This document shows positions 32,475-54,146 of a DNA stretch of 64,000 bases, one piece after another. Numbering within the stretch: the stretch's first letter is position 1; every line of letters begins with the position of its first letter. Source of the DNA: an uncultured Candidatus Saccharibacteria bacterium (GTDB lineage Bacteria; Patescibacteriota; Minisyncoccia; Phycocordibacterales; UBA918); assembly GCA_964399295.1 (NCBI GenBank), contig CAYNQD010000001.1, positions 203,944 through 267,943 on the forward strand, written 5' to 3'. The translations under genes were made by a program, and so were the position numbers. The notes below the pieces were generated by a model. That model did no database searches. It saw only the letters and a program-made list of their open reading frames with translations, and was not told the DNA's origin.

Positions 32475-32549
32475 GGCCCTATCGTCTAATGGTTAGGACA
32501 GCAGGTTTTCATCCTGCAAATCGGAGTTCGATTCTCCGTAGGGTCACCA
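32475..32549 (+). tRNA. tRNA-Glu (anticodon UUC), 75 nt including CCA
   Basis: Manual fold: 7-bp acceptor stem GGCCCTA/TAGGGTC, anticodon stem CAGG/CCTG with loop TTTTCAT, T-arm CGGAG-TTCGATT-CTCCG. Confidence 0.85.
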
Positions 32550-33976
32550 TAACGCAATTCTTCACTTTCAGCGATGGCTGCAAACGGTTTTTGCAAAGTA
32601 AAGACAAGGGTTTTTCCATCAATCTCCAGGTTCGAGGTAACTGATTTTAGCAAATCACGGTTTTCATTCTCATTAGCCTGTTTTTTGTTGATAGCTATAG
32701 CTTTTACCAGTTCGAGGAATTTTATTGTCTTGTAGTCGTTTTTGAACATTTCTGTTTGTACTTCTGCGAGGTCTTCCTCTCTGCTCAATCTTTCATGCAG
32801 TAATTTTTGGTGGCGGTTGTTAAACGTTTCTTTGTCAATCATGCGGTCGATAAAAGCATCGGTGAGACGAGTGATTCTTTCATCAACTTCAGCCAGTTTA
32901 AGTTTGGCGGACTGGATTAATTCAGCTTGGTGCTGGTAGCGTTCCGCTTGGAGGACGGTAAATTCAGCTTCCAGTTTGTTGATGGAAGTCACCGGCAAAC
33001 TAAGCTGATCAATCATAGCTTGCATCTGTTCATCAACTTTGTCTTCTCGGATACAAGCCCGAGGACAGTCTTTGGTATGACAACGGTAATAGACCTGCCC
33101 TTTCTGGTATTCAGCAATCAGGTTATAGTGGCAATGCAGACATTTGATAGATTTGCGGTAGCGGAACTGGTGTTTTAGACCGGTATTCTTGTTTCGACCG
33201 TGCAAAATATCTTGTACGCGGTCAAACTGGTATTTCTTGATCAATGGCTCATGAATACCCTGGTAGCGTTCACCAGTGGAGACGATATGAATAATACCGA
33301 TATAGAATTCATTGCCGAGCATGGTGGATAAACCGTTTCTGGATACTCGATTGCCCGAGCGGTTTCGCAGTCCCGCCTGATACATTTCCCTGCCTAAAGT
33401 ATAGAGACTGTGTTCACCGGTAGCGTAGAGCTTGAAGGCTTGTTGCACCAGTGGGGCCATTATCGGATCAGGTAGTTTTGGCAGTCCACGACCTTGGTCG
33501 AGGTAACCTAAAGGAGCGCGGAGTGGATAGAGTCCTTGCCGTAATCGGCCTCGAAATCCTTTTTTCACCTCATCCCGCAAGTTGCGGATAAAATCCGCCG
33601 CTACCACGGCCTGGATATCAGCGGCCAGTCGTCCACCGCGTGATTGCAGGTCTAGGCTTTCATGAGCAAAATGTACTTCAATACCTTTGTCGATTAGAGA
33701 ACCAAGATCAGCCCAGTCTTTTAGATTCCTGGCACTCCGGTCTATCTTGTGAATAATTACCCCGCCAGCTTGGCCTTTCACTAAAAGTCCAAGCATTTTG
33801 GTGAAAATAGTACGACCGCGTTTAGCCGCTGTTTCCTTTTCTTCAAACCACTGTTTGATGGTTAGGTTGTGACGACTGGCGTAGTTTTCGATAGCAAAAC
33901 GTTGTTCTGCTAAGGAAGAACCTTGGGTTCCTTGTTTGATGGTTGATACTCGGATATAGGCATAAACATATTTCAT
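32486..33976 (-). CDS. Large serine recombinase (integrase); its 3′ end overlaps the 3′ half of tRNA-Glu
   Basis: N-terminal resolvase catalytic domain YIRVSTIKQ…SLAEQ…HKIDRSARN, recombinase domain, zinc-ribbon Cys cluster, coiled coil. Confidence 0.8.
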   Translation of the reverse strand: MKYVYAYIRVSTIKQGTQGSSLAEQRFAIENYASRHNLTIKQWFEEKETAAKRGRTIFTKMLGLLVKGQAGGVIIHKIDRSARNLKDWADLGSLIDKGIEVHFAHESLDLQSRGGRLAADIQAVVAADFIRNLRDEVKKGFRGRLRQGLYPLRAPLGYLDQGRGLPKLPDPIMAPLVQQAFKLYATGEHSLYTLGREMYQAGLRNRSGNRVSRNGLSTMLGNEFYIGIIHIVSTGERYQGIHEPLIKKYQFDRVQDILHGRNKNTGLKHQFRYRKSIKCLHCHYNLIAEYQKGQVYYRCHTKDCPRACIREDKVDEQMQAMIDQLSLPVTSINKLEAEFTVLQAERYQHQAELIQSAKLKLAEVDERITRLTDAFIDRMIDKETFNNRHQKLLHERLSREEDLAEVQTEMFKNDYKTIKFLELVKAIAINKKQANENENRDLLKSVTSNLEIDGKTLVFTLQKPFAAIAESEELRYGDPTENRTPICRMKTCCPNH

Positions 33977-35784: not shown

Positions 35785-37663
35785 TAGTGTCTGCCCGAAA
35801 ACTCACAATTCAAATAAATAACAATGGATTACGTTTAATTCCGGCAAAGAAGATTAGAAGGAATTTGAAATAAAACGACGTAGATAGGCGGTTTTGTCGT
35901 ATTTCAGGCCACAAAAACCCCAAACTTCGACAATAGTTTGAGAGAATATTCTTTATCACAAACCAACTTCGTTCGAATGGAATCCTCATGCGCGTAGTCC
36001 GAAAGACCCAAATGCAGTTAGGTGAAATTGACGTATCACAAATCAAATTTGATTTGCATTCCCGAGACGATATCCCCAAGGTGTTGCGCGGATTGCAGCA
36101 TCTATATCTGAACGAAACATTACGCGAACAGGTATTTGCGTTGCTGGGAAATGAAATTGCACCCACAGTGAACAAGCAAAATGGCCGTCCCGGCATGACA
36201 CTCTGGCGTATTCTGGTTTTTGGCGTATTGCGTCTGGACTTGAATATCGACTACGACCGTCTTCATGAGCTGAGCAACCAGCATCGAACCTTGCGGCAAA
36301 TGCTCGGCCATGGCTTGTACGATGAAGACAGGAAATATGCTTACCAGACCCTGGTGGATAACGTTGGACTGCTCACGCCGGAATTACTGGACAAACTGAA
36401 CCAGGTCATCGTAGCAGGAGGACATGCGCTGGTAAAAAAAAAGGACGGCGCAGCCCTGCGTGGGCGGTGCGACTCCTTTGTGGTTGAAACCGATGTTCAT
36501 TTTCCAACCGACATCAATTTGTTGTGGGACGCGATGCGCAAGGCGATTACGCTGACCGCGCAATGGAGTGAAAACCAACAACACAGCGATTGGCGCCAAT
36601 ATCGTTACAACCTGCGTCTATTGAAACGAAAGCTGCGTGAGGTGCAGCAAAGCAAGCGTCGCGCCAGCACGGATCAGAAGCCCATTCAGGTTATGCAGGC
36701 GCATCAGCGCTATCTTAATCAGGCGCAATATTACCTGAACAAAATTCAAACCACCTTGCCCGGATTGATTGCGATAACCGCGACCGAACGCCTGTTATGC
36801 ATTGAAATCGAAGGCTACATCCGTCATGCACAGCGTCAAATCAGCCAGATCGAACGCCGCGTAATGCAGAATGAGACCATCTTGCACGAAGAGAAAGTAT
36901 TTTCTGTTTTTGAGCCGCATACCGAATGGATCAGCAAAGGCAAAGCCGGTGTGCCGGTTGAGCTGGGTGTTAAAGTCTGTATTCTGGAAGATCAGCATCA
37001 ATTCATCCTGCATCATCACGTCATGACAAAACAAACCGATGATCGTATCGCGGTTGAAATGGTCACCGAGGCCAGGAAACGTTTTCCCGCCCTCAGTGCC
37101 TGTAGCTTCGATAAAGGCTTTCATTCGCCCGCCAACCAGACCGAACTGGCCCGGCAGCTCGACCAGGTCACGCTGCCTAAAAAGGGCAAGCTGTCCAAAG
37201 CGCGTCAAGCGGTAGAGCAGGCAGAAGAATTCACCAGAGCGCGTCATGCACACTCAGCGGTAGAATCGGCAATCCACGCGCTGGAAGTGCATGGTCTGGA
37301 TAAATGTCCCGATCATGGCATTAACGGTTTTAAACGGTACGTCGCACTGGCCGTTGTCGCCAGAAATATCCGTCGTATCGGAGATATTTTATGGCAGCGT
37401 GAAGAAGCACAAGAACGCAAGGCAAGCGCGCAACGAAATTCAAAGTATCGGCGAACTGCCTGAAACTTTTTCCAAACGAAAAACAGCGTCTGATTGTAAA
37501 CAATCAGCGGTGACTGCTGGGCAAAATTCGGGGTTTTCGTGCAAGATTTCCTGAAAATCACAAATGAACGTGTTTTTGGCGGAATCGTTCCGCTGAATTT
37601 TGTTCAAGGTGATTAAGAATTAGGCAGGCTGGTGGTGAAAATGGGGTTTTCGGGCAGACACTA
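35785..37663 (+). mobile_element. Insertion sequence (~1.88 kb), GC-rich (~50%) relative to the host, with 18-bp terminal IRs TAGTGTCTGCCCGAAAAC
   Basis: IR_L 35785–35802 and IR_R 37646–37663 are perfect reverse complements; a single transposase ORF lies inside. Confidence 0.7.
35988..37463 (+). CDS. DDE transposase of the IS (IS4/IS5-superfamily-like; exact family not assigned)
   Basis: 491-aa ORF filling the IS; DSFVVETDVHFPTD-type first Asp region; codon/GC bias foreign. Confidence 0.6.
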   Translation: MRVVRKTQMQLGEIDVSQIKFDLHSRDDIPKVLRGLQHLYLNETLREQVFALLGNEIAPTVNKQNGRPGMTLWRILVFGVLRLDLNIDYDRLHELSNQHRTLRQMLGHGLYDEDRKYAYQTLVDNVGLLTPELLDKLNQVIVAGGHALVKKKDGAALRGRCDSFVVETDVHFPTDINLLWDAMRKAITLTAQWSENQQHSDWRQYRYNLRLLKRKLREVQQSKRRASTDQKPIQVMQAHQRYLNQAQYYLNKIQTTLPGLIAITATERLLCIEIEGYIRHAQRQISQIERRVMQNETILHEEKVFSVFEPHTEWISKGKAGVPVELGVKVCILEDQHQFILHHHVMTKQTDDRIAVEMVTEARKRFPALSACSFDKGFHSPANQTELARQLDQVTLPKKGKLSKARQAVEQAEEFTRARHAHSAVESAIHALEVHGLDKCPDHGINGFKRYVALAVVARNIRRIGDILWQREEAQERKASAQRNSKYRRTA

Positions 37664-37731
37664 CTTAAACATGCTTTCGAGCGTGACAATAAAAATGCTT
37701 CTGAAGCTAACCCGCAGAAGCCATAAATTCT

Positions 37732-38106
37732 ATGAAAAAGAATAATAAAAATAAGTTTGCCCGGTGCTATTTACGCACATACCGGCGCAATTGGGGTTTA
37801 ACCCAAAAAGAATTGGCGACCTTGATTGGTACCGCCAGCAGTGTACAGATTAGTCGTTACGAAAACAGCAAACGCGCCCCCAAATTAGAAGTCGCGCTTG
37901 CCTGCCAAGTCATTTTCGGGGTTCCCCCGTCAACCATGTTTCCAAATGCCTACGCCTTGTCCGAGGAAGAAGTCATGAGGAATATGTGTCAAATGGACTT
38001 GGCGCTCCAAAACACTACCAATCTTTCAGGATTACGCAAGCGAGAACTGTTTAGTATCGCTCTCAGGCGTGTTTTAGACGAATCCCCTTTAGTTAAAAAG
38101 GTATGA
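37732..38106 (+). CDS. XRE-family helix-turn-helix regulator
   Basis: GLTQKELATLIGTASSVQISRYENSKRAP HTH_3-like block. Confidence 0.6.
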   Translation: MKKNNKNKFARCYLRTYRRNWGLTQKELATLIGTASSVQISRYENSKRAPKLEVALACQVIFGVPPSTMFPNAYALSEEEVMRNMCQMDLALQNTTNLSGLRKRELFSIALRRVLDESPLVKKV

Positions 38107-38627
38107 GTGTGGTTTTAAACAAAAGCCTAGTGTTGGCTATCTATCCTTTCAGTCGTGGATTTGCCTTTGTGCTATTTGAAGGCCCAGATAGTCCATTTGA
38201 CTGGGGCGTGAAGGAAATCAGGGATAAGCAACGAAACGTTAAAACCTTGGATGAGATAAAGGAGCTGATTGATCGTTATTGCCCGGAAGCCCTAGTGATG
38301 GAAGATATCAGCGACCGTGCTGGCCGACGATCAACCCGAATCAAGAAGCTTTATCAAATGATTGTTCATCTAGCCATCACTGAACACCTTGATCTGCATC
38401 GGATTTCCCATGCTGATACCAAACGGTATTTTGCCGTTATCGGTGCTGTTACCAAATACGAAATCGCTAAAGCCATTAGTCGACAAATACCGGCTTTTGG
38501 TCACCGGTTACCGAGAGTCCGTAAACCGTGGATGAGTGCTGATCCTAGGCAAAGTCTCTTTGATGCGGCGGCTTTGGGATTGGTCTTCTACGATAATCGC
38601 GGGGTACCCAGTCCTTTTGAAGCGTAA
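38103..38627 (+). CDS. Hypothetical protein, possibly an RNase H-like (RuvC/YqgF-like) fold
   Basis: LAIYPFSRGFAFVLFEG…LVMEDI resembles RuvC motif I/II spacing; 4-bp overlap with the upstream HTH gene. Confidence 0.3.
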   Translation: MSVVLNKSLVLAIYPFSRGFAFVLFEGPDSPFDWGVKEIRDKQRNVKTLDEIKELIDRYCPEALVMEDISDRAGRRSTRIKKLYQMIVHLAITEHLDLHRISHADTKRYFAVIGAVTKYEIAKAISRQIPAFGHRLPRVRKPWMSADPRQSLFDAAALGLVFYDNRGVPSPFEA

Positions 38628-38696
38628 TACAAAGCTTTTCCTTGTCATCGAGGAGTACCGAATTCCCGGTATTCCTCACGTGACAAGGAGGAAGTT

Positions 38697-39602
38697 ATGT
38701 TTCAAAGAAACGCGAGTACCAAAACCGATATCTACGCCAAGATAACCAATGAAATTATTCAGGCCATTGAAGCTGGTACCGGTGATTTTGCTATGCCCTG
38801 GCATAAACAAGCTTATGCTGGACTGCCACGGAATACTGTGACTAAACAGCCATACCGAGGTATTAATACGTTGTCTTTGTGGTTAGCTAGGCGGAGTGCG
38901 GGTTTTGCCAGTTCATACTGGGCATCATATTTGCAGTGGAAATCACTGAAAGCTCAGGTGCGGCAAGGTGAAAAGGGTTCAACTGTTGTGTTTTATAAGC
39001 AGCTGGAGAGCGAGGAGGAAAACGAAGACCGTGACGAAACTGAAAACCAAGCTCGAGCGGTGATCCGGTATTCCCACGTGTTCAACGGTGATCAGGTGGA
39101 TGGTTGGTCACAGACTGAAGCTCCAAGTCTGGCCAACCACACTAAATTTGCTAAAGCGGTGTGTTTTATCAATGCTCTTAAAAGCGATATCAAGCATGGT
39201 AGTGATACTGCTTATTATAGTCCAGCGCAGGATTGTATCTTTATGCCGAATCAGTCAATGTTTCAGGATACCAAAGCTGGTTCTGCCATTGAAGGCTACT
39301 ATGCGGTTTTGTTCCATGAGCATATTCATTGGTCTGGACACAAGACACGGTTAAACCGTGACATGTCTGGGAAATTTGGCTCTAGTTCTTACGCTATGGA
39401 AGAGTTGGTGGCAGAGCTTGGCGCATCGTTTCTGTGTGCTACGCTTGACATCAATACTTACCCGAGACCAGATCATGCTTCATACATTGCCAGCTGGCTT
39501 CAGGTACTGAAGGAACACAAAACGGCGATCTTTGCGGCGGCTGGTGCGGCTTCGAAAGCCAGTCTGTTCTTGGAAACATTAGTGGAGACTAATCGAAATT
39601 AA
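38697..39602 (+). CDS. ardC: ArdC-like antirestriction protein (ssDNA-binding N-domain plus zincin metalloprotease C-domain)
   Basis: ITNEIIQAIEAGTG…PWHK…KQPYRGINTLSLW…GEKGSTVVFY (DUF1738-like) and HEHIHWSGH. Confidence 0.75.
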   Translation: MFQRNASTKTDIYAKITNEIIQAIEAGTGDFAMPWHKQAYAGLPRNTVTKQPYRGINTLSLWLARRSAGFASSYWASYLQWKSLKAQVRQGEKGSTVVFYKQLESEEENEDRDETENQARAVIRYSHVFNGDQVDGWSQTEAPSLANHTKFAKAVCFINALKSDIKHGSDTAYYSPAQDCIFMPNQSMFQDTKAGSAIEGYYAVLFHEHIHWSGHKTRLNRDMSGKFGSSSYAMEELVAELGASFLCATLDINTYPRPDHASYIASWLQVLKEHKTAIFAAAGAASKASLFLETLVETNRN

Positions 39603-39651
39603 AGCAGTTCTTTTTAACCCGGCCTTGGTGGTCGGGTTTTTTATCTCTGAC
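39405..39651 (+). repeat. Direct repeat copy 1 (ardC 3′ end plus terminator), ~95% identical to 42874–43120
   Basis: Alignment by eye of ttggtggcagagcttggcgcatcgtttct…gtcgggttttt. Confidence 0.8.
39617..39645 (+). terminator. Rho-independent terminator of ardC
   Basis: aacccggccttggtggtcgggtttttt. Confidence 0.65.
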
Positions 39652-40188
39652 AGAAGTCACGGCCTAAGTTTTTAATCATACTGTCTGAAAATCTTACACC
39701 AAATAAAGGCGAGCTATCACGTTATATCCGGCTAACCATGTCAACTTAAAAAGAATTTCTAGGTAATTAAAAATTAGAATCATAAAAAACTGTCGGATTA
39801 TTTTACACGCCCCAGATTGCCTATTATTTTCTAGTTTTATCTCTTATCTTCAATAGATTATGTGCAATAACTACATTAATAGACTTAGATATTTGCCTAT
39901 AAATTGAGCAATTTTATGTTTTTAGGTGTCGAGATTCTTACACAAGCCATTTTAATAATAATTTTTAGTATTTGATTTAATTTTTTTATGCTTCCTAAAG
40001 CTAGTATTTGTGGGTTTTTGGTGAGATGTATTTAACACTCTCTTAAGAGTTGGTATAAAAATTGCTTGAAAATAATTGTATGTGGGTGGGGATTTATTCT
40101 GGCGCAGGTGTTCTTTGCAGAAAAATTGTTATGCAGGGTTACGTGATTTACACAAGCATTGGGTGTGGTATTGTATAAACAATAGGTT

Positions 40189-40806
40189 ATGAGAAAATCT
40201 CTAAAGATCATTTTGGTGGGTGTATTTGTATTAGTTACTATATTAATGATATCAGAAAACATTAACAGCAAGAATTCAACCCCTTTGAGCCTGAACCAGC
40301 AGAACATTTCCGATGATACTAACAAAAAGAATGAATTTCTTTTGTTACATAAAACACTTGATGAACTTTCGGAAACTTGGCCGGAAAGCAAAATACGACC
40401 ATATCGAAAGGCCGTTGAGAAATTTCCAAACGTAGACAGCTGTTTACTTGAAAGAGACGTGAATTCTGTTAACTGGTCAATAATCAAGACAACAACTGAA
40501 TTAGAAGTATGCTTATCTCGCATACATAATCATCTCGGGGATGTATCTAAATCTGAGGAATGGTTTAAGCAACAAGGTTTTAGTGTGAATGTTAGAAGTA
40601 ATCCCGATTACCCCGAGCGTCTTCATAGCGTAGGTGGTATCTGGTTAATTCCATCATCTGGTCCGCTAAAGAATCGAAAGTCACCCCTGTCCGGAATACA
40701 CGCACGATTTACGGAGTTATTTTTAAACTCAGGAATTAGTGTTGGAATATATATTAGTCAAGAAAACGTAGTTACTCATGTGACGGTCGAGTATTTAGTG
40801 AAGTAA
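40189..40806 (+). CDS. Secreted or membrane-anchored hypothetical protein (cassette gene 1)
   Basis: Signal-peptide-like MRKSLKIILVGVFVLVTILMI; AT-rich; no known domain. Confidence 0.5.
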   Translation: MRKSLKIILVGVFVLVTILMISENINSKNSTPLSLNQQNISDDTNKKNEFLLLHKTLDELSETWPESKIRPYRKAVEKFPNVDSCLLERDVNSVNWSIIKTTTELEVCLSRIHNHLGDVSKSEEWFKQQGFSVNVRSNPDYPERLHSVGGIWLIPSSGPLKNRKSPLSGIHARFTELFLNSGISVGIYISQENVVTHVTVEYLVK

Positions 40807-40830
40807 TCAAATAAATAAAGGGGAATTGAA

Positions 40831-41199
40831 ATGCCTGCTATAAGGATAGCTGCAAATTACATTGCTGGTTCATCTATTTTAACTGGTGATCTTGATCGCT
40901 CCGGTCATTTGCAAATTGTTTACGATGATGATGATCCGAATACACCTCTGATAGAAGCAGAGGTGCAAGCACCTATTGTGTTAGGCCCCCTCGTATTAGT
41001 GGGTGACTGGGTTTTCCCGAGGTTTGGTCAACTTCATGGTAAACCCACCGACTATATAGCTGACGATGACACGATAGAAAATACTGATCGCTATGCAATA
41101 ACCACCGTTAACTTACGGCCTTATCAAACAAATGTTGCCTATAAATTGAGCAAATGCGTGTCGATATTTCTTACAGCAGTCATACAAAAACCATTTTAA
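40831..41199 (+). CDS. Hypothetical protein (cassette gene 2)
   Basis: 122-aa ORF 24 bp downstream of gene 1. Confidence 0.4.
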   Translation: MPAIRIAANYIAGSSILTGDLDRSGHLQIVYDDDDPNTPLIEAEVQAPIVLGPLVLVGDWVFPRFGQLHGKPTDYIADDDTIENTDRYAITTVNLRPYQTNVAYKLSKCVSIFLTAVIQKPF

Positions 41200-41462
41200 T
41201 AACAACGAATTACTAGCTATCTTGTTTTTTATTACTGTGCAAGTAACTGTTTATAAGTGATGATGGGATATCCTAAATATTTTTTTGAACAATTGGCATG
41301 AAAATTGCATGGCAATTTGTATGTTGGTACAGGTTGGCTATGGGGCAAATTTTTTCTGTGATTTTTTGGTGTGAGTGCTCTTGCAAAAAAATGTTATTGA
41401 GAGTCACGTAGTTTACACTAACATAATACATGTTATTGTTTATTTACAATAATTAATAATTT

Positions 41463-42494
41463 ATGAAAAGATATTTGAAGATCATACTACTAATTATATT
41501 TGGATTAAGTGCTGTATTAATAATGATGCAAAGTGTGAAAAGTCAGGAATCATTCAAGAAGATTGAGGGCACCGAGATCTTCCGTCAGACGATTATTGGC
41601 TCAAATGCAGGCAGGGATCACGTTGCACACCTATATAATAACCGCCTTTTTATTCTACCCCTGGGAACACCGGTATATCCAGAAGTGATCACAGCGATCA
41701 AGCGTATTGGCAGTAGCTGGACGCGGGACGATATGAAGATTATGCTCCCAAAGAAGGCCAAATTTGTATGCGCTAAGGGAACATACGCTTTTTTCACACA
41801 ACAGGACAATGTTCTACAAATTGATTTAGACAGTGGCGGTGCATTGAATAATCTGGGCTCAGGACTTGCCATTTCGGCGGATTGTAACGCATTAGAAATC
41901 CCGCTACGGTTAGGGGTGCTTTGTGAGAAAGACTCGCCAGTTTTTCAAAAACTCCTCTCCAGCCGAGACGGTTGGCTAGTTGGCTGTCCTTTAGCCAACG
42001 GAGACGGCATCGCCATTCAGTCTATCCGTCCTGATGGTAAGACTGTTAGCTTCGGCACAGTCGCAAAAGGGCGTGGTAGTGCAAGACAGTGGACTGTGGA
42101 TTATTTACCTTGGTCTGATGCTTATCTTATACACGTGAGCTACCCAGGTGCAGAATTTTTCGGACTCATTGACTCTAAGGGCTGGCGCATGCCGTTCCAG
42201 ATGCTGCCAAAAGGCCCATGGTTTGAGACTAGTTTAGGGTTTGGTGCTGGACGCGCTTCTCTCAAGATTCTGCACCCTTCTGATCCACTCGTAATTCACG
42301 CTACCACAGGACAACTCTTTTTCGCACACAATGAAGCTGTTTCTTTACTCAAAACATCAGTACCTCAAGTGCGTATTTCACAAGATGGTTGTTATGCTTT
42401 GATTGTGACTGACATTCGCAGCAAAACCCTTAATTCCGACGGACTCCCTTTTGCAACTCAAACTGTTAACGAGGTTCCTCTTTGTGTATTTTAA
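41463..42494 (+). CDS. Secreted hypothetical protein (cassette gene 3), with a signal peptide paralogous to gene 1
   Basis: MKRYLKIILLIIFGLSAVLIMM closely matches MRKSLKIILVGVFVLVTILMI; the mature domains are unrelated. Confidence 0.5.
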   Translation: MKRYLKIILLIIFGLSAVLIMMQSVKSQESFKKIEGTEIFRQTIIGSNAGRDHVAHLYNNRLFILPLGTPVYPEVITAIKRIGSSWTRDDMKIMLPKKAKFVCAKGTYAFFTQQDNVLQIDLDSGGALNNLGSGLAISADCNALEIPLRLGVLCEKDSPVFQKLLSSRDGWLVGCPLANGDGIAIQSIRPDGKTVSFGTVAKGRGSARQWTVDYLPWSDAYLIHVSYPGAEFFGLIDSKGWRMPFQMLPKGPWFETSLGFGAGRASLKILHPSDPLVIHATTGQLFFAHNEAVSLLKTSVPQVRISQDGCYALIVTDIRSKTLNSDGLPFATQTVNEVPLCVF

Positions 42495-42660
42495 AGTTTG
42501 ACGGTGCTTGTAACAAAGCCATGTACTGACTGCCACCTTATAAGTTTATTATCAATTGATTTTAAAGGAGTTTTATTGAGTTTTTATACATTTAATAATT
42601 ATCTAAGATTGTGCATCTTAACTAAGAATAATCAAATTTTAACTGTAAATAGGAGGTATT

Positions 42661-43071
42661 ATGTCACTTACGGGACTCGCCTTTAATAATAGTTTTGCTG
42701 GAACAAAATTCTTCCACCCAGGTTTAAGTAGTGTTGGAGTGTTGGAAGCCATCAATCTATCCGGTGCTGCCTATGAAACAACAGAGGGCGGTCTTTCAAC
42801 TTTTGACCTTGGTGCATGGAAACCAATCACGGCCAGTTTAACAGCGGTTGAATATGGGTTAGATTCGACGTTATTGGTGGCAGAGCTTGGCGCATCGTTT
42901 CTATGTGCTACGCTTGACATCAATACTTACCCGAGACCAGATCATGCTTCATACATTGCCAGCTGGCTTCAGGTACTGAAGGAACACAAAACGGCGATCT
43001 TTGCGGCGGCTGGTGCAGCTTCCAAAGCCAGCCTGTTCTTGGAGGCATTAGTGGAGACTAATAGAAGTTAA
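42661..43071 (+). pseudogene. Chimeric ORF: a novel 70-aa N-terminus fused to a duplicated ArdC C-terminal 65 aa
   Basis: C-terminus LVAELGASFLCATLDINTYPRPDHASYIASWLQVLKEHKTAIFAAAGAASKASLFLE is nearly identical to the ArdC end. Confidence 0.6.
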
Positions 43072-43120
43072 AGTAGTTCTTTTTTTAACCCGACCTTGGT
43101 GGTCGGGTTTTTCTTTGTAT
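42874..43120 (+). repeat. Direct repeat copy 2 (ardC 3′ end plus terminator)
   Basis: See copy 1. Confidence 0.8.
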
Positions 43121-43256
43121 GATAGATAAAACATATTTTAAATCCAATGTATTACTGATGGTTTGGGTTGTTTTGTTAGTTTTGTATGTGTTGGGAAAAT
43201 TTACATGTACAAAATAACTCTTAGATTTTATTTTACTTTTTTATTATCACTCAACT

Positions 43257-43958
43257 TTAGACATCCAGCCCCCAGCCTTGCGTCACCCGAACGATGGCAC
43301 AACTGGGAGTGAAACGAACGAAATTCATGCCGTTTGCTGCTGATAGTGCTGCTACATCCGTAATCTTGGGTCCCCGCGCTGTTTGGGGAAGGTGAATATT
43401 GAGGACTTCCGGTTGAAACTGTCTCTGAAAGAAAGTCCGGTAAATTCCATTCGTAGCCACTGCGCCACCAGACCGCCGGTCAGTGGTTCTTTGCCGCGCC
43501 ATGGCGCCACGGCATCGATAGAGAAAGATTCTTCCGCAACCAGACTCAATAACTGAACCAGTGTCCACGCCGCCGAGCGAATCTGCATCCATATAACTCC
43601 AGCACAGTGCGTTTCTGCTGCCACAAGTTGTTCACACCCCACCAGCGCCGCTTCAGGTTGTAAAACAAGGGCTCGATGCCCCATCGTCGTGCGTATAGGA
43701 AAAGTATTTCTTCTGCATTTAATTCCGTTTCGGTTGCCAATAGCAGGCGCGCCTTTGACCAACGCTGTTTGTCCGCATCTTAGAATTCGCACCATAATCG
43801 CGCGCACCGGTGTCCCTTTGAGAAAGCGTGCCATTGCAACCGTCGTGCACAGGCAAAGTCGGACAGTTTGAGCGTAGGACATAGAGCACCAAATGAGGAA
43901 TAAAAATTCCTTCATTGGCCGCGCAAACCTTGCCTTCTGTCAAGTGATTTTTGCTCAT
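43257..43958 (-). pseudogene. Degraded IS4/IS701-like DDE transposase (frameshifted fragments), GC-rich
   Basis: Three overlapping minus-strand ORF pieces; ILFLYARRWGIEPLFYNLKR matches the C-terminal YxxRWxIE transposase motif. Confidence 0.55.
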
Positions 43959-44388
43959 TTTCTGAATGTTTTTTCGCCTCGTATCGCTACTTTGCTTTTG
44001 CCTTAATGGTCGATTCTTTGATGCTGAATGTCTAAACTTGAGTTATTATCAATTTTGTGAACCAACTTCACAGAAATAAAGTATGTAATTTGGGTGGTAA
44101 ATTGCACAATTATTGTGCGGGAAAGTGTCGATCTTTTTTACACCTACTCATTTTAAAGCGTTGTTTTTGTAGTGTGCTGAATTTAGAAAGCTGGGAAATT
44201 AGCTGTATTATTTGCTTTATTGGAAGAAGCTAAATTATTTATAGTATTGGCGTGGATTTTGCTTTGTCTTTGTCTATTGTACATAGGTGCAGGTTGATAG
44301 CGGTCTAATTTTAGGCTATGTCTGCATTAAACGTTGAAACCACTTTTTTGTCCAATAGACTGGAACATTAAGACTGGAGAGCATAGTC

Positions 44389-45360
44389 ATGAAAGTCTCT
44401 GATTTTCTGGAGTGGTTTGAAAAAATATCGCACCTTAGTCGTGGTCAAAAAGAACAGGTCAGGCATTGCTTAAGCGAGGTGAAGCCGCAAGCTGCGGTCG
44501 TGAAATATCTTGAGGATTCTTTTGAAGCGAATTGTCCGGTCTGCCAGGCAGATCGCTTTTATCGTTGGGGACACCAAGCGGGGTTGCAACGTTTTCGCTG
44601 TTGCGCATGCAAGCACACATTCACGGCTATTTCGGGAACCCCTTTGGCTCGTCTGCGGCATAAGGAACAGTGGTTGAATTACAGCGCGGCGTTGATTGAA
44701 GGCTTGACCGTGCGAGCGAGCGCCAAGCAATGCGGAATAGACAAAAATACCAGTTCTCGCTGGCGCCATCGGTTCCTGACTTTGCCGGCGGCGACTAAAG
44801 CCAACCACTTGCATGGGATCATCGAGGCGGATAAGACCTTTTTTCCTTCTTCCTGCAAAGGCCAACGCCATCTGAATCGTCCACCGCGTAAACGCGGCAA
44901 GCAAATCCATGCACGTGGCACAGGCAAAGACCAGGTGCCGGTGTTGGTAGTACGCGACCGCTCTGGTGCAACAGCGGATTTCATATTGAATGCGCTTGAT
45001 AAAAAGACAATTGAGCCTCCTTTGCGGGCTATTCTGGCGAAGGATGCCATTTTCTGTAGTGATGGCGCTGCCGTCTACCGGTCTGTGGCTCATAGCCTCG
45101 GAATTACCCATCGCCCCGTCAATCTCTCTGCTGGGATTCGAGTCATTGCTGGCGTTTACCATATCCAGAATGTTAATGCCTACGACAGCCGACTTAAACA
45201 ATGGATGAAAAGATTTCATGGGGTCGCGACCAAATACTTGGCAAATTATCTGGGCTGGCGTAGATGGTTGGAACGTTGGGGCGAGCACAACTCGCCAATC
45301 GTTGCGCTCCAGGTCGCTCTCGGGAGAGAAAATCAGTTTCAACTATTAACGCAGATATAG
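44389..45360 (+). CDS. IS1595-family transposase (N-terminal zinc-ribbon plus DDE_Tnp_IS1595)
   Basis: CPVCQ…C.C zinc ribbon, ~320-aa length, DDE-domain layout; GC ~52%. Confidence 0.7.
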   Translation: MKVSDFLEWFEKISHLSRGQKEQVRHCLSEVKPQAAVVKYLEDSFEANCPVCQADRFYRWGHQAGLQRFRCCACKHTFTAISGTPLARLRHKEQWLNYSAALIEGLTVRASAKQCGIDKNTSSRWRHRFLTLPAATKANHLHGIIEADKTFFPSSCKGQRHLNRPPRKRGKQIHARGTGKDQVPVLVVRDRSGATADFILNALDKKTIEPPLRAILAKDAIFCSDGAAVYRSVAHSLGITHRPVNLSAGIRVIAGVYHIQNVNAYDSRLKQWMKRFHGVATKYLANYLGWRRWLERWGEHNSPIVALQVALGRENQFQLLTQI

Positions 45361-45480
45361 CCACAGTCTTGTCTTCGCAAACATTGATGTGGCGAATTGT
45401 TATAAAGAGGTGTTCGATTTACATTGCTTGAGTATTTGTTATTGTCAAATATAAAGAGTGATGTTAGGCTAACATGCTAT

Positions 45481-45897
45481 ATGCTATTAAAAAATTTATC
45501 AATTAAAAAGAAATTATTACTAGTAGCCACCATCACTTTATTAGCCCTTTCAGCTTTAGTTGCTAATGTTTTAATACCGTACAATATCAGTGAATGTGAA
45601 CTGGCGCAGTTGGTGTTTATCCAGTACGCAGGAAATAACGATGGTCACGAAAGTGTTGAAGATCTAATCGACGATGGAATCATCTACTATGGTACTAGGG
45701 GTCCTCACGGAATCTTTGACTTTAGTAAGACTTACAGACTAGGTATCGTAGAGCGTTGGAGAGGTAAGGCAAAGGGGAAATACCTTGAATATGACCTCAC
45801 TAGAACAGGTAACATGACTGGTTTTAGAAAAATGACAGTATCCCTTGAAGAAATAGAACACGGAAAAAGAGAGCTAAAAAAAATTGTTTGCCCCTAG
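45481..45897 (+). CDS. Small TM-anchored protein co-transcribed with the giant RTX gene. The ORF track starts at TTG 45424
   Basis: MLLKNLSIKKKLLLVATITLLALSALVANVL N-terminal helix; stop is 9 nt before the SD of the next gene. Confidence 0.45.
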   Translation: MLLKNLSIKKKLLLVATITLLALSALVANVLIPYNISECELAQLVFIQYAGNNDGHESVEDLIDDGIIYYGTRGPHGIFDFSKTYRLGIVERWRGKAKGKYLEYDLTRTGNMTGFRKMTVSLEEIEHGKRELKKIVCP

Positions 45898-45906
45898 GAG
45901 GAATAG

Positions 45907-48900
45907 ATGGTTACTAGAATCACTTCAGGTAGTTTAAATGTTTCTGAATTTACTCCAGAAACAATCGTTAGTTTATATTTGTATGGCACGAAGACACCCC
46001 CGCAAAATCTATATGACCGAATAAAACCAGAGAGTTTCTTAAGCAACTTAACTACTCTTAAAGACGAACAAGGTAATTTTGTTGCCAATGTTGTAAATAT
46101 GGCCGTTGACGGACAAGCGTATTTGGACAACGGAGCGGGACGGTTTGCTACACCTGCCGAGTTTGAATTAGTCAAAATATTCTTTGAGGGGTTTAATAAC
46201 TTCTTTTTTAACTTAGATCCTGGCTCGTATACCTATGACCAACTAAACGACAAGGTAACATTTTTTACTCAACTCACTGGTGGTCATGATAATCGTCTCG
46301 TCATTGAGCAGTTAGGTAGAAATGACGGCAAAGATAATGGTGTAGATAGGCCTTTTATTTTTAATAATACAAGTTTTACTCTCCAAACAAATCAAAATGC
46401 AGCTCAGGAATTAAGATTTGTTGTTACCCCAGCAGGCGAAAGATATATAGAAAACGTTGCTATTCGCACTTTTGATGATAATTTTGATTTTGTAGGGGGA
46501 AGTTTTGCTTCAGTTATATTTAACGCGGCAGAAGCAGGAAAATATGATCCTTACAGAATTGGACATCGGGTAGAATTTGATTACAACAACAATAATTTAA
46601 CAGTTGACCCTAAATACACACTTAACGATTATAACCAGCATCTTCAATTTATCGCGGATACTTCGAAGCAAGTGGCAACTAATAGTGATAGTGATAAACT
46701 TAGAGAAAGGCTTGAAGCAAAAGAAATTTTGTTATACGAAAAATCAGGGTATAGCATTGTTTATGGTACGTATGAATCTCAACAACTACATGCTGTTACA
46801 GAATTACTCTCACTATTTAGTAAACCAAGTCTTATCCTTGCCGGAGAAGGTGCTGATAAAGTTACCGGAGGATCGAAGAGTGATCGTCTTTATGGACATG
46901 AAGGTAACGATGATCTTTTTGGTCTTGATGAAGCTGACTATCTTTTTGGTGGTTCAGGTGACGATGAACTTGATGGCGGTCCAGGCAATGATTATCTTTT
47001 TGGTGACGTTTCGTCAGAAAATTTTCTAGGTGCAGAAGAAGTTAAATTTACTTCCGGTAACGACACTCTTGATGGTGGCGCTGGCAATGATATTCTTGAT
47101 GGCGGTCCAGGCAATGATACTTACAAATTCACCAATGGATTATTCGGCGGATCATACGGTAATGACACCATCATAGGTGGCTCTGGAAATGTTGATCGTA
47201 ATGACGTAATTGAAATAAACGGTACAATTTTCTCTGGCAATCCCACTAAAACTCAAAATAACAATGAATACAGCCTAAATAGCAAGACTATTCAGGTGCT
47301 TAGTGGAGATGTTACAACTGAGGCCACCATTAAAATTATTGATGGTTCCAATTCTATTGAAGTTCGAGGCTTTACTACTGGTGATTATGGTATTAATTTC
47401 CTAGATACAACAACTTTACGTCCAGAACGTGATTTCTACACTGGAACAACGAGTAACGGTCTTCTGTTTCTCAATTGGTTTCGTGAGGGGGATCTTTCAT
47501 ACTCGATTGATGTTTTAAACGATGGGACGGTGTTGCGACCTGCCGGTGCTGGCTTCCAAGATGCCGTTCTGACGATTCCTGCAAACTTGAATTTTGTTCA
47601 ATCAGGTGGTGTTGATTTAAGAGGGCTTCGGGGTTCACAGGAAGACGTCCTTGTTGAGGTTAAGTATTCAGTCAGTCCAGCGAATAGTCCTATCGTCGAC
47701 CTGGTAACCTTTACAACGGACACTGTCAGATACTTATTTATCGGAGACGGTGTCGATAATCGCGGCGGGCAAGCTTTTGGTGATCCACACTTAATCACAT
47801 TCGATAACGTTAGCTATGACTTTCAAGCAGCTGGTGATTTTATCCTTACTCGTGCCACAAGCGGGCCTGATTATGAAGTACAAGCCCGGTTTTCAGCTTT
47901 TTCATCAGCAGTATCGGTAACTACCGCTATGGCCACCAAGGTCGATGGAATAGCTGTATCGATACAAATCGATGGTGATACAGGTGATTTGTTGATTGAT
48001 GGCAGTAGTGTGAATATCGCTAATGGTGGTTCAGTAGCTGTTGGTGGAGGCTCCATTAGTCGAAACGGTAGAAAAATTGAAATTGATCATGGTAATGGCG
48101 ATAAAACCTCAGTGGATGTTTTTAGCAGTTTCATGAATGTCACTCCGTCACCTTCTCTTGCGAGAATTCCAGGCTCGTTGGAAGGACTGCTTGGCGATGC
48201 TGACGGCAATCCTGGTGATGATTTTCAATTAGCAGATGGCACTGTACTTCCCACACCGTTACCAATCAATACTCTCTATGGTAGTTATGCTGCTAGTTGG
48301 CTGGTAGCCGATAGCGAATCTATCCTTCCTGGTGCTCGTGAGTTGTTTGATGCACCTGATAGAATCATCACTATAGATAGCTTGCCACAATCTTTGCGAC
48401 AAGCCGCTGAGGCCGCTGTTGCCGCAGCTGGAATTACTAATCCGATTTTGCGTGAGGCTGCAATTTTAGACTTTGCCTTAACTGGGAATATAGAATTTAT
48501 TGAAGCAGCCAAGCTTACAAACGACATTTTTGATCCGATTATCGATACAGTAGCTGTTGATCCGATCAATAATCCGGTAGTGATTCTAACGACTAACCAG
48601 ATTGAACTTGATGAAGCAAACCCTGCCCACCAGACCGCTACACTCACCGTCTCACGTGGTTCAACTACAGGTGATTTAACAATTAACTATAATGTCATTG
48701 GAGTCGGTGCTTATCCTGCCAATACAGATGATTTTTCAGGAAATACTTCCGGTACAGTGGTCATTAATGATGGTGAGGACACTGCAACATTTACCGTTGG
48801 AATAGTTGATGATCTATTAGATGAAGAATCAGAACAATTTGATGTAGCTATTGCGTTAGATGGTACTCAAGCTTCTGCCTATGAGTTATTAGTATCTTCT

Positions 48901-52094: not shown

Positions 52095-54146
52095 ATGGCT
52101 GTTAGTGAGGTGGTGATGAATACAAAAAACGAACCAAAACGGGTCGGTATCTGGGTTCGCGTATCAACGGAAGATCAGGTACGGGGTGAAAGTCCCGAAA
52201 CCCATGAACGTCGCGCCCGCTTATACGCTGAAGCTAAAGGTTGGAACGTGGTGGAAGTCTATCGCCTAGATGCTGTCTCCGGTAAAACCGTTAAAGATAC
52301 CCCAGAAGCCAAACGGATGCTTATTGATGTGCAAGATGGCCATATCACTGGGTTAATCTTCTCCAAACTGGCCCGTTTGGCCCGTAACACCAAAGAACTA
52401 CTGGAATTCTCAGAAATCTTCCGCGACTGTGGAGCTGATCTCATTTCACTGGCCGAAAGCATCGATACCTCTACCCCCGCTGGTCGACTCTTCTATACGA
52501 TGATTGCCGCGATGGCGCAGTGGGAACGCGAAGAAATCTCAGAAAGAGTGGCGGCAGCGGTACCGATCCGAGCTAAAGCTGGTCAACCAACTGGTGGGCA
52601 AGCGCCGTTTGGTTATGAGTGGAGAGATAAGAAGCTGTATATTGATCCAGCCGAAGCCAAAGTCCGTAAATTGATCTTTGAATTGTTTCGTGAACACAAA
52701 CGCAAAAAATTAGTAGCTAGACTATTAAACGATCAGGGTTATCGTACCCGAAACGGTGGTAAATTCTCTGACACCACCGTTGACCGACTGCTCCGTGATC
52801 CAATTGCGATGGGTACCCGCAGGGCCAACTATACTTGTACCAAAGACAACAACAAAGCCTGGAAGCTAAAACCAGAATCAGAGTGGGTTTATTTAAAGGT
52901 AGAACCCATTGTTTCAGAAGAACTATGGCAGGAATGCAATCAATTCTTGGATGAGCAAAGAAGCAAGTTAAAGCGGGTTACTAAATCAGCTGTTTATCTG
53001 TTTTCTGGCTTAGCGTACTGTATTTGTGGGAAGAAGATGTATGTGCCGTCCAATAGCCCAAAATACACCTGCAAAGAGTGTCGCAACAAAATACCGGTTG
53101 ATGATTTAGAAGCGGTATTTCATGAACAAATCAAGAATTTCTTGGTATCAGAAAAAGAGATAGTTAATCACTTAGAACAGGCTAATGTTGAGGTGAAAGA
53201 AAAGGTTGAACTCCTGGGGGTATTAGAAAAGGAAACAAATAAGCTTAATCAGGAAATTGATAAGCTGTATGACCTCTACCAGTCCAGTATGATTGATAAA
53301 CATGGATTTGGGCTGAAATACAAGCCACTAGCTGAACGGCGAGAACAGTTAGACGAACAAATCCCTAAACTGCAAGCTGAGATTGATATTATGAAAATAT
53401 CGCAATTGTCTCAGGAAGTAGCTATTGCCGAAGCACGTGATTTATATGGTCGCTGGCCCTCACTTCCCTTTGCAGAAAAAAGGCGGATCGTGGAAGCGAT
53501 TGTGGAGAAGATAACGATTGGTAACGGTGAGATTGAAATCAATCTTTTCTATACTCCCCCAGCCTCAGAGATACCGCAACACAACTTAAATAACGGAGGA
53601 ATAACTAATATTTATTCCTCCTTAAATCATGGTAATTTGGCAACAGATGCTCATAGACGCGTCGCCTTTTTGCCATTTGTCCGTACAAAGCTTAAATCAT
53701 TGATTCCTAAGTCATATGATTTTGAGCCTAAGGCTCTGGGTGAGCATCTACTGAAGCGGAGGTTATTTCTTGAGTTGTCACAAGCTGAGGTTGGCAAGCT
53801 ATTCAATGTTTGCTCCTTCACGGTTGGTAACTGGGAAAAAGGACATTCAGAACCAAAAATATTCCAGATACCGATTCTAATCGAATTTCTTGGTTACGAT
53901 CCGATTAATCACCACTCTAATTCAATTGCTGAATTATTGCTGGCTAAACGGAAGAAATTAGGCTGGACTCAGAAAGTGGCTGCTAAAAATCTGGGCGTTG
54001 ATCCGTGTACTTGGTCGAGCTGGGAATGTGGTAGAGCAATCAAGACTTATAAACATCGGCGGTTGGTGGCTGAGTTTTTAAATATGGATGAGGGGGTTGT
54101 TGATGTGATAATGAAATTGCAGTGGAATGAGCTACATGAACGGTGA
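52095..54146 (+). CDS. Large serine recombinase with a C-terminal extension carrying two XRE-type HTH modules
   Basis: VGIWVRVSTEDQ…SPETH catalytic domain, recombinase domain, Cys4 zinc ribbon (CICGKK…CKEC), coiled coil, then LSQAEVGKLFNVCSFTVGNWEKG and LGWTQKVAAKNLGVDPCTWSSWE. Confidence 0.75.
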   Translation: MAVSEVVMNTKNEPKRVGIWVRVSTEDQVRGESPETHERRARLYAEAKGWNVVEVYRLDAVSGKTVKDTPEAKRMLIDVQDGHITGLIFSKLARLARNTKELLEFSEIFRDCGADLISLAESIDTSTPAGRLFYTMIAAMAQWEREEISERVAAAVPIRAKAGQPTGGQAPFGYEWRDKKLYIDPAEAKVRKLIFELFREHKRKKLVARLLNDQGYRTRNGGKFSDTTVDRLLRDPIAMGTRRANYTCTKDNNKAWKLKPESEWVYLKVEPIVSEELWQECNQFLDEQRSKLKRVTKSAVYLFSGLAYCICGKKMYVPSNSPKYTCKECRNKIPVDDLEAVFHEQIKNFLVSEKEIVNHLEQANVEVKEKVELLGVLEKETNKLNQEIDKLYDLYQSSMIDKHGFGLKYKPLAERREQLDEQIPKLQAEIDIMKISQLSQEVAIAEARDLYGRWPSLPFAEKRRIVEAIVEKITIGNGEIEINLFYTPPASEIPQHNLNNGGITNIYSSLNHGNLATDAHRRVAFLPFVRTKLKSLIPKSYDFEPKALGEHLLKRRLFLELSQAEVGKLFNVCSFTVGNWEKGHSEPKIFQIPILIEFLGYDPINHHSNSIAELLLAKRKKLGWTQKVAAKNLGVDPCTWSSWECGRAIKTYKHRRLVAEFLNMDEGVVDVIMKLQWNELHER

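Follow-up and report, generated by a model that had tools for sequence, protein, structure and literature searches.

Repeated upstream regions in a Saccharibacteria contig as likely displaced front ends of an N-terminally polymorphic RTX protein operon

A stretch of 64,000 nucleotides from an uncultured Candidatus Saccharibacteria bacterium (contig CAYNQD010000001.1, positions 203,944 to 267,943; "the window" is this whole 64-kb stretch, to which all unlabelled coordinates refer) contains three copies of an intergenic region, each of which leads into a small gene whose product begins with a hydrophobic segment. The locus is best explained, with a probability that we put at about 0.6, as a set of displaced front ends of an N-terminally polymorphic RTX protein together with its cognate, probably immunity-like, partner. 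The repeated element itself is then probably the 5' control region plus the signal-anchor-coding start of one type of operon. In this operon, the product of gene 1 would be small, with a membrane anchor or signal sequence at its N-terminus followed by a periplasmic domain specific to its family; gene 2 would encode a type I secreted RTX/VWD protein with a variable N-terminal head, and gene 3 a PEP-CTERM-like protein. The modules, or operons, are numbered 1–3 along the window and their gene-1 families are called A (205 amino acids (aa)), B (343 aa) and C (138 aa); heads A, B and C denote the N-terminal types of the large protein and bodies the remainder of the RTX/VWD protein (Table 1). A first-pass annotation of the same DNA had proposed a self-contained promoter and leader cassette delivering independent cargo. 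The shared promoter-like region and hydrophobic leader ahead of unrelated mature parts are borne out by what follows, whereas the self-contained cassette with independent cargo is not.

Results

Gene 1 and the head of the large protein

Related contigs place the small gene at the front of an operon. In contig L005 the order is a helix-turn-helix (HTH) gene, a 175-aa gene, ArdC, a 205-family gene, a 953-aa RTX/VWD protein and a 199-aa protein. A 205-family gene is followed in L002/L003 and L012 by a 970-aa or a 1274-aa NIDO/VWD/RTX protein and then by a protein of ~200–220 aa, and a 343-family gene is followed in L001 and L013 by a 1390-aa or a 1054-aa protein of the NIDO/VWD/RTX kind. The gap between gene 1 and the large gene is 9–24 bp for the 205-aa and 138-aa genes of the window and in L005, L012 and L015, and ~170 bp behind 343-family genes. 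Homologues are rare, amounting to 8 clusters for the 205-aa protein and 4 for the 343-aa protein among 5.8 billion; the only named relative, at 53% identity, is a protein from a metagenome-assembled genome of a Nitrosomonas sp.

The 205 family is found with head A in seven loci (window, L002/L003, L004, L005, L012, L015 and L016), the 343 family with head B in four (window, L006, L001 and L013) and the 138-aa protein with head C in window/L018; in L017 a positional analogue, an anchored 127-aa open reading frame (ORF), stands ahead of a head that is 45% identical. Judged from these gene orders, the gene-1 family tracks the head type without exception in the available loci. The three heads (A, ~residues 1–160; B, ~1–300; C, ~1–310) are mutually unrelated, and past residues ~157, 296 and 375, respectively, the proteins are 64–80% identical regardless of head type. 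Residues 375–1128 of the 1129-aa protein of the window are 64% identical to residues 193–952 of the L005 protein. The 1274-aa protein of L012 is a composite: its residues 1–333, including the A head, are 74% identical to residues 1–328 of the L005 protein, and its residues 191–1274 are 80% identical to residues 329–1390 of the B-headed L001 protein. These alignments show bodies reassorting independently of heads, and they indicate that what varies is a joint unit, made up of the gene-1 mature domain and the large-protein head, and not one secreted domain by itself.

The large proteins carry RTX repeats (HemolysinCabind, 3.9e-17), residues 1015–1080 match Zn_serralysin, and Peptidase_M10_C is matched in the 970-aa protein of L002; the calcium-binding repeats and the serralysin-like C-terminus indicate that they are type I secretion substrates. 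Head B aligns with PDB entry 2qua, a Serratia family I.3 lipase, with E 1.6e-5 and with the FRGT motif and GHSLGG, the nucleophile elbow of the alpha/beta-hydrolase catalytic domain, in register, and scores 18.7 bits with Pfam Lipase_3 (cut-off 22); on this alignment it is a family I.3 lipase homologue. Head A, in a search that was exhaustive over 1.84 billion representatives, forms residues 1–100 of all 19 representative matches, and the 10 of these that were scanned all carry RTX repeats, on varied bodies. By these matches the heads resemble domains of RTX proteins with an effector or enzyme function. Sequence and profile searches of the PDB with heads A and C returned noise only.

Upstream regions and promoter-like core

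When the upstream regions of modules 1 and 2 alone were compared (39990–40188 against 41230–41462), the local alignment score was 40, against a null from 500 composition-matched random sequences of 20.4 ± 3.0 (maximum 35). Adding the first ~24 codons raised it to 53 (null 22.1 ± 3.0, maximum 33). These scores exceed the shuffles by 6–10 standard deviations, and blastn aligns 40115–40250 with 41381–41524 at 66% identity over 145 columns (E 7.5e-5), so that the similarity reported in the first-pass annotation survives formal alignment. Its figure of ~75% identity holds for the core blocks (41 of 52 positions in a 52-nt core) and not overall, where the 66% applies; both of the motifs that it quoted are present in the sequence. 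The length of ~130 bp assigned to the element was too short. Homology spans ~300 bp, 39893–40260 against 41137–41535, opening with TTGCCTATAAATTGAGCAA at 39893 (copy 1) and 41138 (copy 2) and reaching about codon 24–30 of gene 1. Copy 2 (41137–41462) is in addition 67.6% identical to L005 7645–8010 (E 4e-24). A test based on global-alignment identity was discarded as uninformative, its null lying at ~80% with free gaps, and a conserved small ORF inside the upstream region was rejected, no ORF being common to the copies.

At the protein level, profile–profile alignment by hhalign joins the 205-aa and 343-aa proteins over residues 1–31 only (E 2.4e-7), and their mature parts have no similarity by BLASTP (best E 2.3) or hhalign; homologous N-termini on unrelated mature domains, as described earlier, are thus upheld.

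A third copy had been placed at 44098–44160, where the scores of 20 and 17 do not rise above nulls of ~20 ± 3. The genuine third copy is split by an IS1595-like insertion sequence (IS), lies at 44125–44142, 44202–44312 and 45393–45451, and precedes the gene for the 138-aa anchored protein. Its distal half (44202–44312) aligns with L005 7733–7839 at a score of 42, its promoter-proximal half (45393–45451) is 78% identical to L005 7872–7930, and the 18-nt block at 44125–44142 matches 41158–41175, a more distal part of the element; 44268–44312 also gave a hit. With 3 sites per 64 kb and none near the housekeeping genes at 1–32 kb, the element is not ubiquitous ahead of housekeeping genes, the finding by which the earlier annotation would have been refuted.

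All three copies and the orthologous region of L005 share the core TGTTATnnAGnG-N8-TTTACA-N13-TGnTATTGT. Exactly 3 occurrences of TGTTATnnAGnG are found in 64 kb (0.52 expected), exactly 3 of TTTACA-N13-TGnTATTGT (0.04 expected), and all six matches sit ahead of the three gene-1 genes. In this core a −35-like TTTACA is separated by 16 nt from a −10-like TATTGT that carries the TG extension (at 40147, 41412 and 45418, and also in L005), and the spacing, which lies within the 16–18 nt range of sigma-70 promoters, is kept across the copies. From this consensus, each module would have its sigma-70 promoter in TTTACA-N16-TATTGT with the upstream TG; the conserved TGTTATnnAGnG block a little ahead of it may be an UP-element-like or regulator site. 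ArdC is preceded, here as in L005, by two overlapping genes (37732–38627), of which one is an XRE-type HTH gene (124 aa) and the other, of 174 aa, has no known family; the HTH gene might act as regulator at the conserved TGTTAT block.

The promoter part is present only in ArdC-linked loci (window, L006 and L005), whereas L001, L002, L004 and L012–L016 have the anchor segment without it. Because the promoter is confined in this way and the leader is shared more widely, the two parts are separable, as judged from their distribution. The exact 23-base promoter pattern gave 0 matches in a metagenome contig collection, which evidently does not hold the L005 contig and so has little weight for distribution. 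An Rfam scan of 39400–46000 gave weak terminator-like matches only, at 39593–39645 and 43068–43116.

The alignments show the three upstream regions to be paralogous. A chance likeness between AT-rich intergenic DNA and generic hydrophobic leaders might have been suspected, given that the region is AT-rich (G+C content 38%), that signal sequences converge compositionally and that the third copy first proposed is not significant. It is excluded by the local scores, by blastn E-values against L005 down to 1e-24, by a 28-position promoter pattern (14 specified bases) found 3 times where 0.04 were expected, and by the hhalign E-value for the leaders; its probability, on these comparisons, is negligible.

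The anchor-coding segment

The first 75 nt and the next 300 nt of gene 1 give opposite groupings in the identity matrix. In L004, which belongs to the 205 family, the anchor segment is 94–95% identical to that of L013/L001 in the 343 family and 62% identical to that of the 205-aa gene of the window; its mature region is ~52% identical to the former and 74% to the latter. The shared tract, ~96 nt in length and sharply delimited, begins 12 nt ahead of the ATG and ends at codon 29 (L004 7989–8086 against L013 1339–1434, about 94% identical). By these comparisons the anchor-coding segment is shown to be a recombination junction, and this exchange of leaders between gene-1 families in other metagenomes supports the polymorphic, modular logic suggested in the first-pass annotation more strongly than the window itself does. 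The exchangeable unit would be bracketed upstream by the ~100-nt anchor-coding segment and downstream by the RTX linker and body. In L001 (667–770) the 343-family anchor segment has a 1-nt deletion relative to L004 and L013, for which an upstream ATG in the other frame compensates; the resulting shorter hydrophobic core is either a real variant or an assembly error.

Stacked modules in the window

Two blocks of the window are collinear with L005. The first, 37659–41130 (L005 5348–8875, 73.5%), begins with the HTH and 174-aa genes and continues through ArdC and the intergenic region into the 205-aa gene and the first ~100 codons of the large gene; the second, 47750–50010 (L005 9894–12155, 76%), holds the remainder of the large gene followed by the third gene. 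Compared with L005, the large gene therefore contains an insertion, 41131–47749.

Within this arrangement, module 1 (39893–41130) has a promoter-like site, an intact 205-aa gene 1 and ~100 codons of a type A large gene, and module 2 (41137–42872) has a promoter-like site, an intact 343-aa gene 1 and 71 codons of a lipase-headed large gene. Module 3 (42874–49971), with two IS elements in its upstream region, is the sole complete operon in the window. The left edge of each module is an ArdC 3' end with its terminator, the second ArdC tail being that of module 3. The type A fragment is 72% identical to residues 1–99 of the L005 protein, and DNA collinearity with L005 stops at 41130; the type B fragment, which ends at 42872, is 84% identical in nucleotides to L001 691–2105 and 71% identical in amino acids to residues 1–89 of the L001 protein. 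The alignments show the large genes of modules 1 and 2 to be truncated, and the ORFs 40831..41199 and 42661..43071 are, by the same comparison, truncated large-gene heads and not genes in their own right. The second of these ORFs is an in-frame chimera of lipase-headed RTX codons 1–71 and the last 65 ArdC codons, a zincin-like metallopeptidase tail. L006 carries this chimera as well.

Orphan modules of this sort also occur elsewhere. In L004, where the chromosomal context differs, an intact gene 1 is accompanied by a head fragment of 62 aa, and in the contigs L006 and L018 of metagenome sample SRR16797981 all three large genes are truncated and all three gene 1s are intact. The window and L006 differ at 74 positions over 3.46 kb, clustered in two tracts, 39500–39800 (29 differences, just after the end of ArdC) and 41700–42000 (44, inside the 343-aa gene), and are identical elsewhere. 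This is the pattern expected of patchy gene conversion or imported tracts, and points to ongoing recombination among close strains.

Table 1 Positions of the features of the locus in the window
Feature	Position	Strand	Remarks
ArdC-like gene, 301 aa	38697..39602	+	Pfam ArdcN 2.6e-37, MPTase-PolyVal 1.6e-46; collinear with L005
Terminator-like hairpin after ArdC, copy 1	39616..39638	+	duplicate at 43087–43109
Intergenic/promoter region, copy 1	39893..40188	+
Copy 1 block TGTTATGCAGGG	40127–40138	+	−35 TTTACA 40147–40152; TG-extended −10 TATTGT 40169–40174
Gene 1 family A, 205 aa	40189..40806	+	signal-anchor codons 1–30 and family-specific domain; intact, displaced module
Type A large RTX/VWD gene start, ~100 codons	40831..41130	+	truncated; ORF continues to 41199 across junction
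Intergenic/promoter region, copy 2	41137..41462	+
Copy 2 block TGTTATTGAGAG	41392–41403	+	−35 41412–41417; −10 41434–41439
Gene 1 family B, 343 aa	41463..42494	+	homologous signal-anchor and unrelated beta-rich domain; intact, displaced module
Type B (lipase-headed) large gene start, 71 codons	42661..42872	+	fused in frame to ArdC tail
Second ArdC 3' end (last 65 codons) and terminator	42874..43112	+	95% identical to 39405–39641; Pfam MPTase-PolyVal on ORF 42661..43071
Degraded IS701-family element inside intergenic copy 3	43240..44052	−	NCBIfam IS701 fragments; 30-nt inverted repeats 43240–43269 / 44023–44052
Copy 3, distal half	44053..44313	+	includes 44098–44160, first proposed as third copy
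IS1595-like insertion	44314..45362	+	splits copy 3 ~55 bp upstream of its −35; inverted repeats 44314–44336 / 45340–45362; transposase 44389..45360, Pfam DDE_Tnp_IS1595
Copy 3, promoter-proximal half	45393..45451	+
Copy 3 block TGTTATAAAGAG	45398–45409	+	−35 45418–45423; −10 45440–45445
Gene 1 family C, 138 aa	45481..45897	+	N-terminal hydrophobic anchor
Complete large protein, 1129 aa	45907..49296	+	type C head, RTX repeats, VWD, Calx-beta, serralysin-like RTX C-terminus
Third gene, 198 aa	49375..49971	+	signal peptide and PEP-CTERM-like C-terminal sorting signal

Properties of gene 1

The leader of gene 1 has a hydrophobic core of 16 residues, and AlphaFold2 (AF2) places a helix at residues 2–25. 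No Ala-X-Ala site or lipobox, and no cysteine at the leader end, was found in the leaders of the 205-aa, 343-aa and 138-aa proteins. From these features a membrane anchor with a periplasmic domain appears at least as likely as secretion. The ratio of non-synonymous to synonymous substitution rates is 0.21–0.22 for the 205-aa gene against L005 and L004 and 0.21–0.25 for the 343-aa gene, and 0.085 for ArdC and the third gene; the ratios indicate that gene 1 is under purifying selection. The family C gene more likely starts at the ATG at 45481, giving 138 aa, than at the TTG of the listed 157-aa ORF from 45424, and the gene call in L018 also gives 138 aa.

A role of the 343-aa protein as a Lif-type foldase was considered and rejected. 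Lif is helical whereas the poor AF2 model of the 343-aa protein is beta-rich, the gene lies upstream, and the usual view is that substrates of type I secretion do not pass through the periplasm.

Third gene, neighbouring genes and the island

The product of the third gene (198 aa) is 78% identical to the 199-aa protein of L005, and its 200-aa homologue in L002 has a weak match to PF07589; the third gene itself matches nothing in Pfam or NCBIfam. The C-terminal RTX module (48940–49296) and the PEP-CTERM-like protein of ~200 aa (49375–49971) form a conserved pair, which recurs in Roseibium (L007 9700–10627) behind a cadherin-like RTX protein of >3314 aa. This suggests that the third gene is a C-terminus-specific partner for anchoring or sorting. 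Another type of third gene, DUF7901-like and of 220 aa, accompanies bodies ending in PKD in L001 and L012. Searches anchored on the third gene found one distant locus among genome contigs, that of Roseibium, and four short contigs with the upstream context absent among metagenome contigs.

The region lies on a chromosomal integrative island that appears to start at a tRNA-Glu gene (32475–32549); a minus-strand gene for a large serine recombinase (32486..33976) overlaps this tRNA gene with its 3' end. A second recombinase (52095..54146) and TrwB-like genes are also present, and megablast of 38000–46000 against a plasmid collection gave no match. A 59-nt stretch, 32539–32597, recurs at 93% in L018 (10752–10810), ~3.1 kb past the right end of the window, and is probably the attachment-site (att) direct repeat bounding an island of ~34.6 kb. 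L018/L020 are 100% identical to window 44892–46960, then contain an IS3-family element and resume at window 59549. This variant is a 12.6-kb deletion (window 46961–59548), through which the type C large gene is cut short near codon 351 and the third gene, the endonuclease I gene, the serine recombinase and the TrwB-like genes are lost.

Other genes of the island include an ISNCY-family transposase gene (35988–37463, NCBIfam E 2e-161) between a 434-aa island gene and the HTH gene, which with the IS701 remnant and the IS1595-like element makes three IS elements in 10 kb. Just downstream of the operon lie a ChaN/Tiki-like gene (50100–50840) and an endonuclease I family gene (50919–51809, minus strand; Pfam E 4.5e-40).

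Discussion

We propose two replacements of the operon's front end, which consists of gene 1 and the large-protein head, with the old fronts left upstream. Each of these, with its own promoter, may have persisted because keeping its gene 1 is useful. Gene 1 would then be a cognate periplasmic partner that binds the head, most likely an immunity or inhibitor protein; we call this the most economical role because the intact recurrence of orphan gene 1 and its purifying selection fit stand-alone use. The architectural and evolutionary part of this account, which draws on gene order and alignment, is likely correct. The immunity role of gene 1, argued by analogy with known pairs, we hold at somewhat less than even odds. 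A fuller version is more tentative still: a mirror-image polymorphic effector system, carried on an island, with interchangeable N-terminal RTX heads each having an upstream membrane-anchored periplasmic immunity protein, with swapping of whole units and retention of orphan immunity genes. In such a system the heads would be one lipase-like and at least two of unknown fold, and units would be swapped by homologous recombination between the anchor segment and the RTX linker.

Several observations weigh against the proposal. The sample of loci is small, ~15 metagenome contigs that are mostly short. Toxicity of the heads and their neutralisation by gene 1 are both deduced, with the lipase-like head B and the Smlt3024/Smlt3025 precedent as the only indirect support, and the gene-1 families have no sequence match in Pfam, NCBIfam or the PDB; their profiles against FrpD (5EDF) and Smlt3025 (6PDK) gave no match at E up to 10. 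The AF2 model of the 343-aa protein (5 sequences) has a predicted local distance difference test (pLDDT) value of 37 and is unusable, that of the 205-aa protein (9 sequences) reaches 57 and is confident at residues 47–130 only, and Foldseek of the latter against the PDB gave nothing below E 0.8. Head A was never found on another delivery system among its 19 representative matches, unlike a classic promiscuous toxin domain, and family I.3 lipases are ordinary exoenzymes for which we know of no immunity partner. Type I transporter genes were not found among the scanned ORFs of the window, in a scan that was not exhaustive, and may lie elsewhere. A promoter scan gave 18 promoter-like sites where 14.6 were expected, and promoter activity is deduced from the consensus match only. 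Finally, related islands that integrated in tandem and then underwent neutral deletions could equally have given rise to the stack, and the truncated head ORFs have stayed open, in keeping with a recent origin and not necessarily a sign of selection.

This last point leads to a view of the whole stack as a neutral by-product, of tandem insertion next to ArdC or of recombination, followed by illegitimate deletions; the shared element would then reflect ordinary common ancestry of the intergenic region, and the survival of the 205-aa and 343-aa genes would be accidental. The ArdC tail and terminator duplicated at 95%, the IS-rich locus (ISNCY, the remnant of IS701, IS1595 and, in the L018 variant, IS3), the large serine recombinases on the island, the open head ORFs and the junctions at 41131–41137 and 42873/42874, which show no obvious site, are all in keeping with such a history. 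What it leaves unexplained is the anchor segment shared at 94–95% between gene-1 families of unrelated contigs, the strict pairing of gene 1 and head despite reassortment of bodies, and the independent orphan in L004. Every remnant, moreover, retains a promoter-like site and a complete gene 1, and the two clustered tracts of differences between the window and L006 point to ongoing gene conversion. We therefore consider a purely neutral origin unlikely, and even if it were correct it would explain why unrelated genes here have a common promoter and leader. Still less probable is the version of the first-pass annotation, a self-contained promoter/leader cassette exporting independent effectors or surface proteins, with the 205-aa and 343-aa proteins as cargo. 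The common upstream region and first ~30 codons ahead of unrelated mature domains are what it predicts, as is the exchange of leader segments between families. However, in every full-length locus these proteins are the product of the first operon gene and co-vary with the head encoded by the next, promoter and leader do not travel together outside ArdC-linked loci, and there is no visible cleavage motif, membrane anchoring being as likely as secretion.

The remaining alternative accepts the pairing and differs in its purpose. LapA-type adhesins keep their N-terminal module at the cell envelope, and in the FrpD–FrpC pair it is a surface lipoprotein to which the RTX N-terminus is bound. Gene 1 could serve the head of a type I adhesin or enzyme retained at the surface, as its dedicated tether, chaperone or regulator in the periplasm, with promoter and anchor conserved since each variant needs like expression and membrane placement. 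Such a role suits the position of gene 1 upstream of the RTX protein whose head type it tracks, the adhesin-type domains of the large proteins (VWD, NIDO, PKD, Calx-beta and cadherin), the like C-terminal module and third gene of the Roseibium cadherin-like RTX protein (>3314 aa), and the homology of head B to a secreted lipase that needs no immunity; FrpD, too, has been described as putatively involved in adhesion (PMC5233953). On the other hand, a tether has no obvious use once its partner is truncated, yet such orphans are present in the window, L006, L004 and L018. Lipobox and sequence similarity to FrpD are absent, and the general view that type I substrates bypass the periplasm applies here as well. 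We regard a tether or chaperone as doubtful, and return to displaced front ends with a cognate, probably immunity-like partner as the preferred reading.

If the pairing is one of effector and immunity, the polymorphic-toxin logic of contact-dependent inhibition (CDI), Rhs and type VI secretion system (T6SS) loci would extend to type I RTX proteins with reversed polarity, and the locus would give genomic support to the published, still hypothetical suggestion that N-terminal RTX domains whose exported partners are encoded upstream, as in FrpC/FrpD, act as antibacterial pairs of effector and immunity protein (PMC6759196). In the mirror-image version, superseded orphan immunity modules would be the host's record of past antagonists. 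The comparisons also show a signal-anchor-coding segment acting as a recombination junction, and they yield three families of small proteins and two head domains, all uncharacterised and open to direct tests in pairs. With three defined pairs, the proposed idea of type I effector-immunity systems is now directly testable as well.

Comparison with known systems

CDI (CdiA-CT/CdiI) and Rhs toxin-immunity loci have been reviewed (PMC9086364) and their orphan modules described (PMC4927057). The resemblance is considerable: there as here, a variable domain of a very large exported protein goes with a small adjacent cognate gene, the variable domain is sharply set off from a conserved body and heads and bodies reassort, variable modules are exchanged at conserved flanking sequence, and displaced modules with a truncated large gene and an intact small gene lie beside the active gene, often on mobile islands. 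The present locus differs in that the variable domain is N-terminal, the partner is upstream, and the displaced modules lie upstream with their own promoters. The protein that carries its variable domain is of the RTX/VWD type, ends in a C-terminus of type I style and does not belong to the two-partner-secretion or Rhs/T6SS proteins, there is no demarcation motif of the VENN or PxxxxDPxGL type, and toxicity and immunity are only deduced here. Because the defining arrangement of C-terminal toxin and downstream immunity fails, we do not file the locus as a member of the CDI/Rhs class.

In Stenotrophomonas maltophilia, smlt3026 (HTH), smlt3025 (an upstream periplasmic immunity lipoprotein) and smlt3024 form one operon; Smlt3024 is an effector homologous to RTX N-terminal domains and is toxic only in the periplasm (PMC6759196). 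The order of HTH gene, upstream exported partner and downstream effector is the same, an HTH gene standing immediately upstream of gene 1 in L002, and the effector domain is of a class that occurs at the N-termini of RTX proteins. Smlt3025 needs an export signal and acts in the periplasm, as is proposed for gene 1. Smlt3024 is unlike the large proteins in being a stand-alone substrate of the Xanthomonadales-like type IV secretion system (X-T4SS) with a C-terminal XVIPCD and not an RTX protein, and Smlt3025 is unlike gene 1 in being a lipoprotein with an FrpD-like fold; between its structure (6PDK) and the 205-aa, 343-aa or 138-aa protein no sequence similarity was found.

An arrangement with a type I substrate is that of frpD-frpC of Neisseria meningitidis, in which an upstream gene with a signal sequence precedes that of a type I secreted RTX protein. 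FrpD binds FrpC's N-terminal domain with a Kd of about 0.2 nM (PMC5233953), and gene 1 may bind its head in a like manner; the authors of the Smlt3024 study have proposed that FrpC and FrpD are effector and immunity protein of a type I secretion pair (PMC6759196). As an outer-membrane lipoprotein FrpD differs from the gene-1 products, which have no lipobox cysteine and for which no sequence similarity to it was found, and neither polymorphism of head and partner nor displaced modules are described for frpDC in the FrpD–FrpC study (PMC5233953). For head B alone the relevant relatives are the family I.3 lipases. In Serratia marcescens LipA (2qua) an N-terminal catalytic domain is followed by RTX repeats, and head B aligns with this catalytic domain, although the match is partial. 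Unlike these lipases, head B forms part of proteins of 1054–1390 aa, where NIDO, VWD and PKD modules are joined to it, and is preceded by a cognate anchored 343-aa protein.

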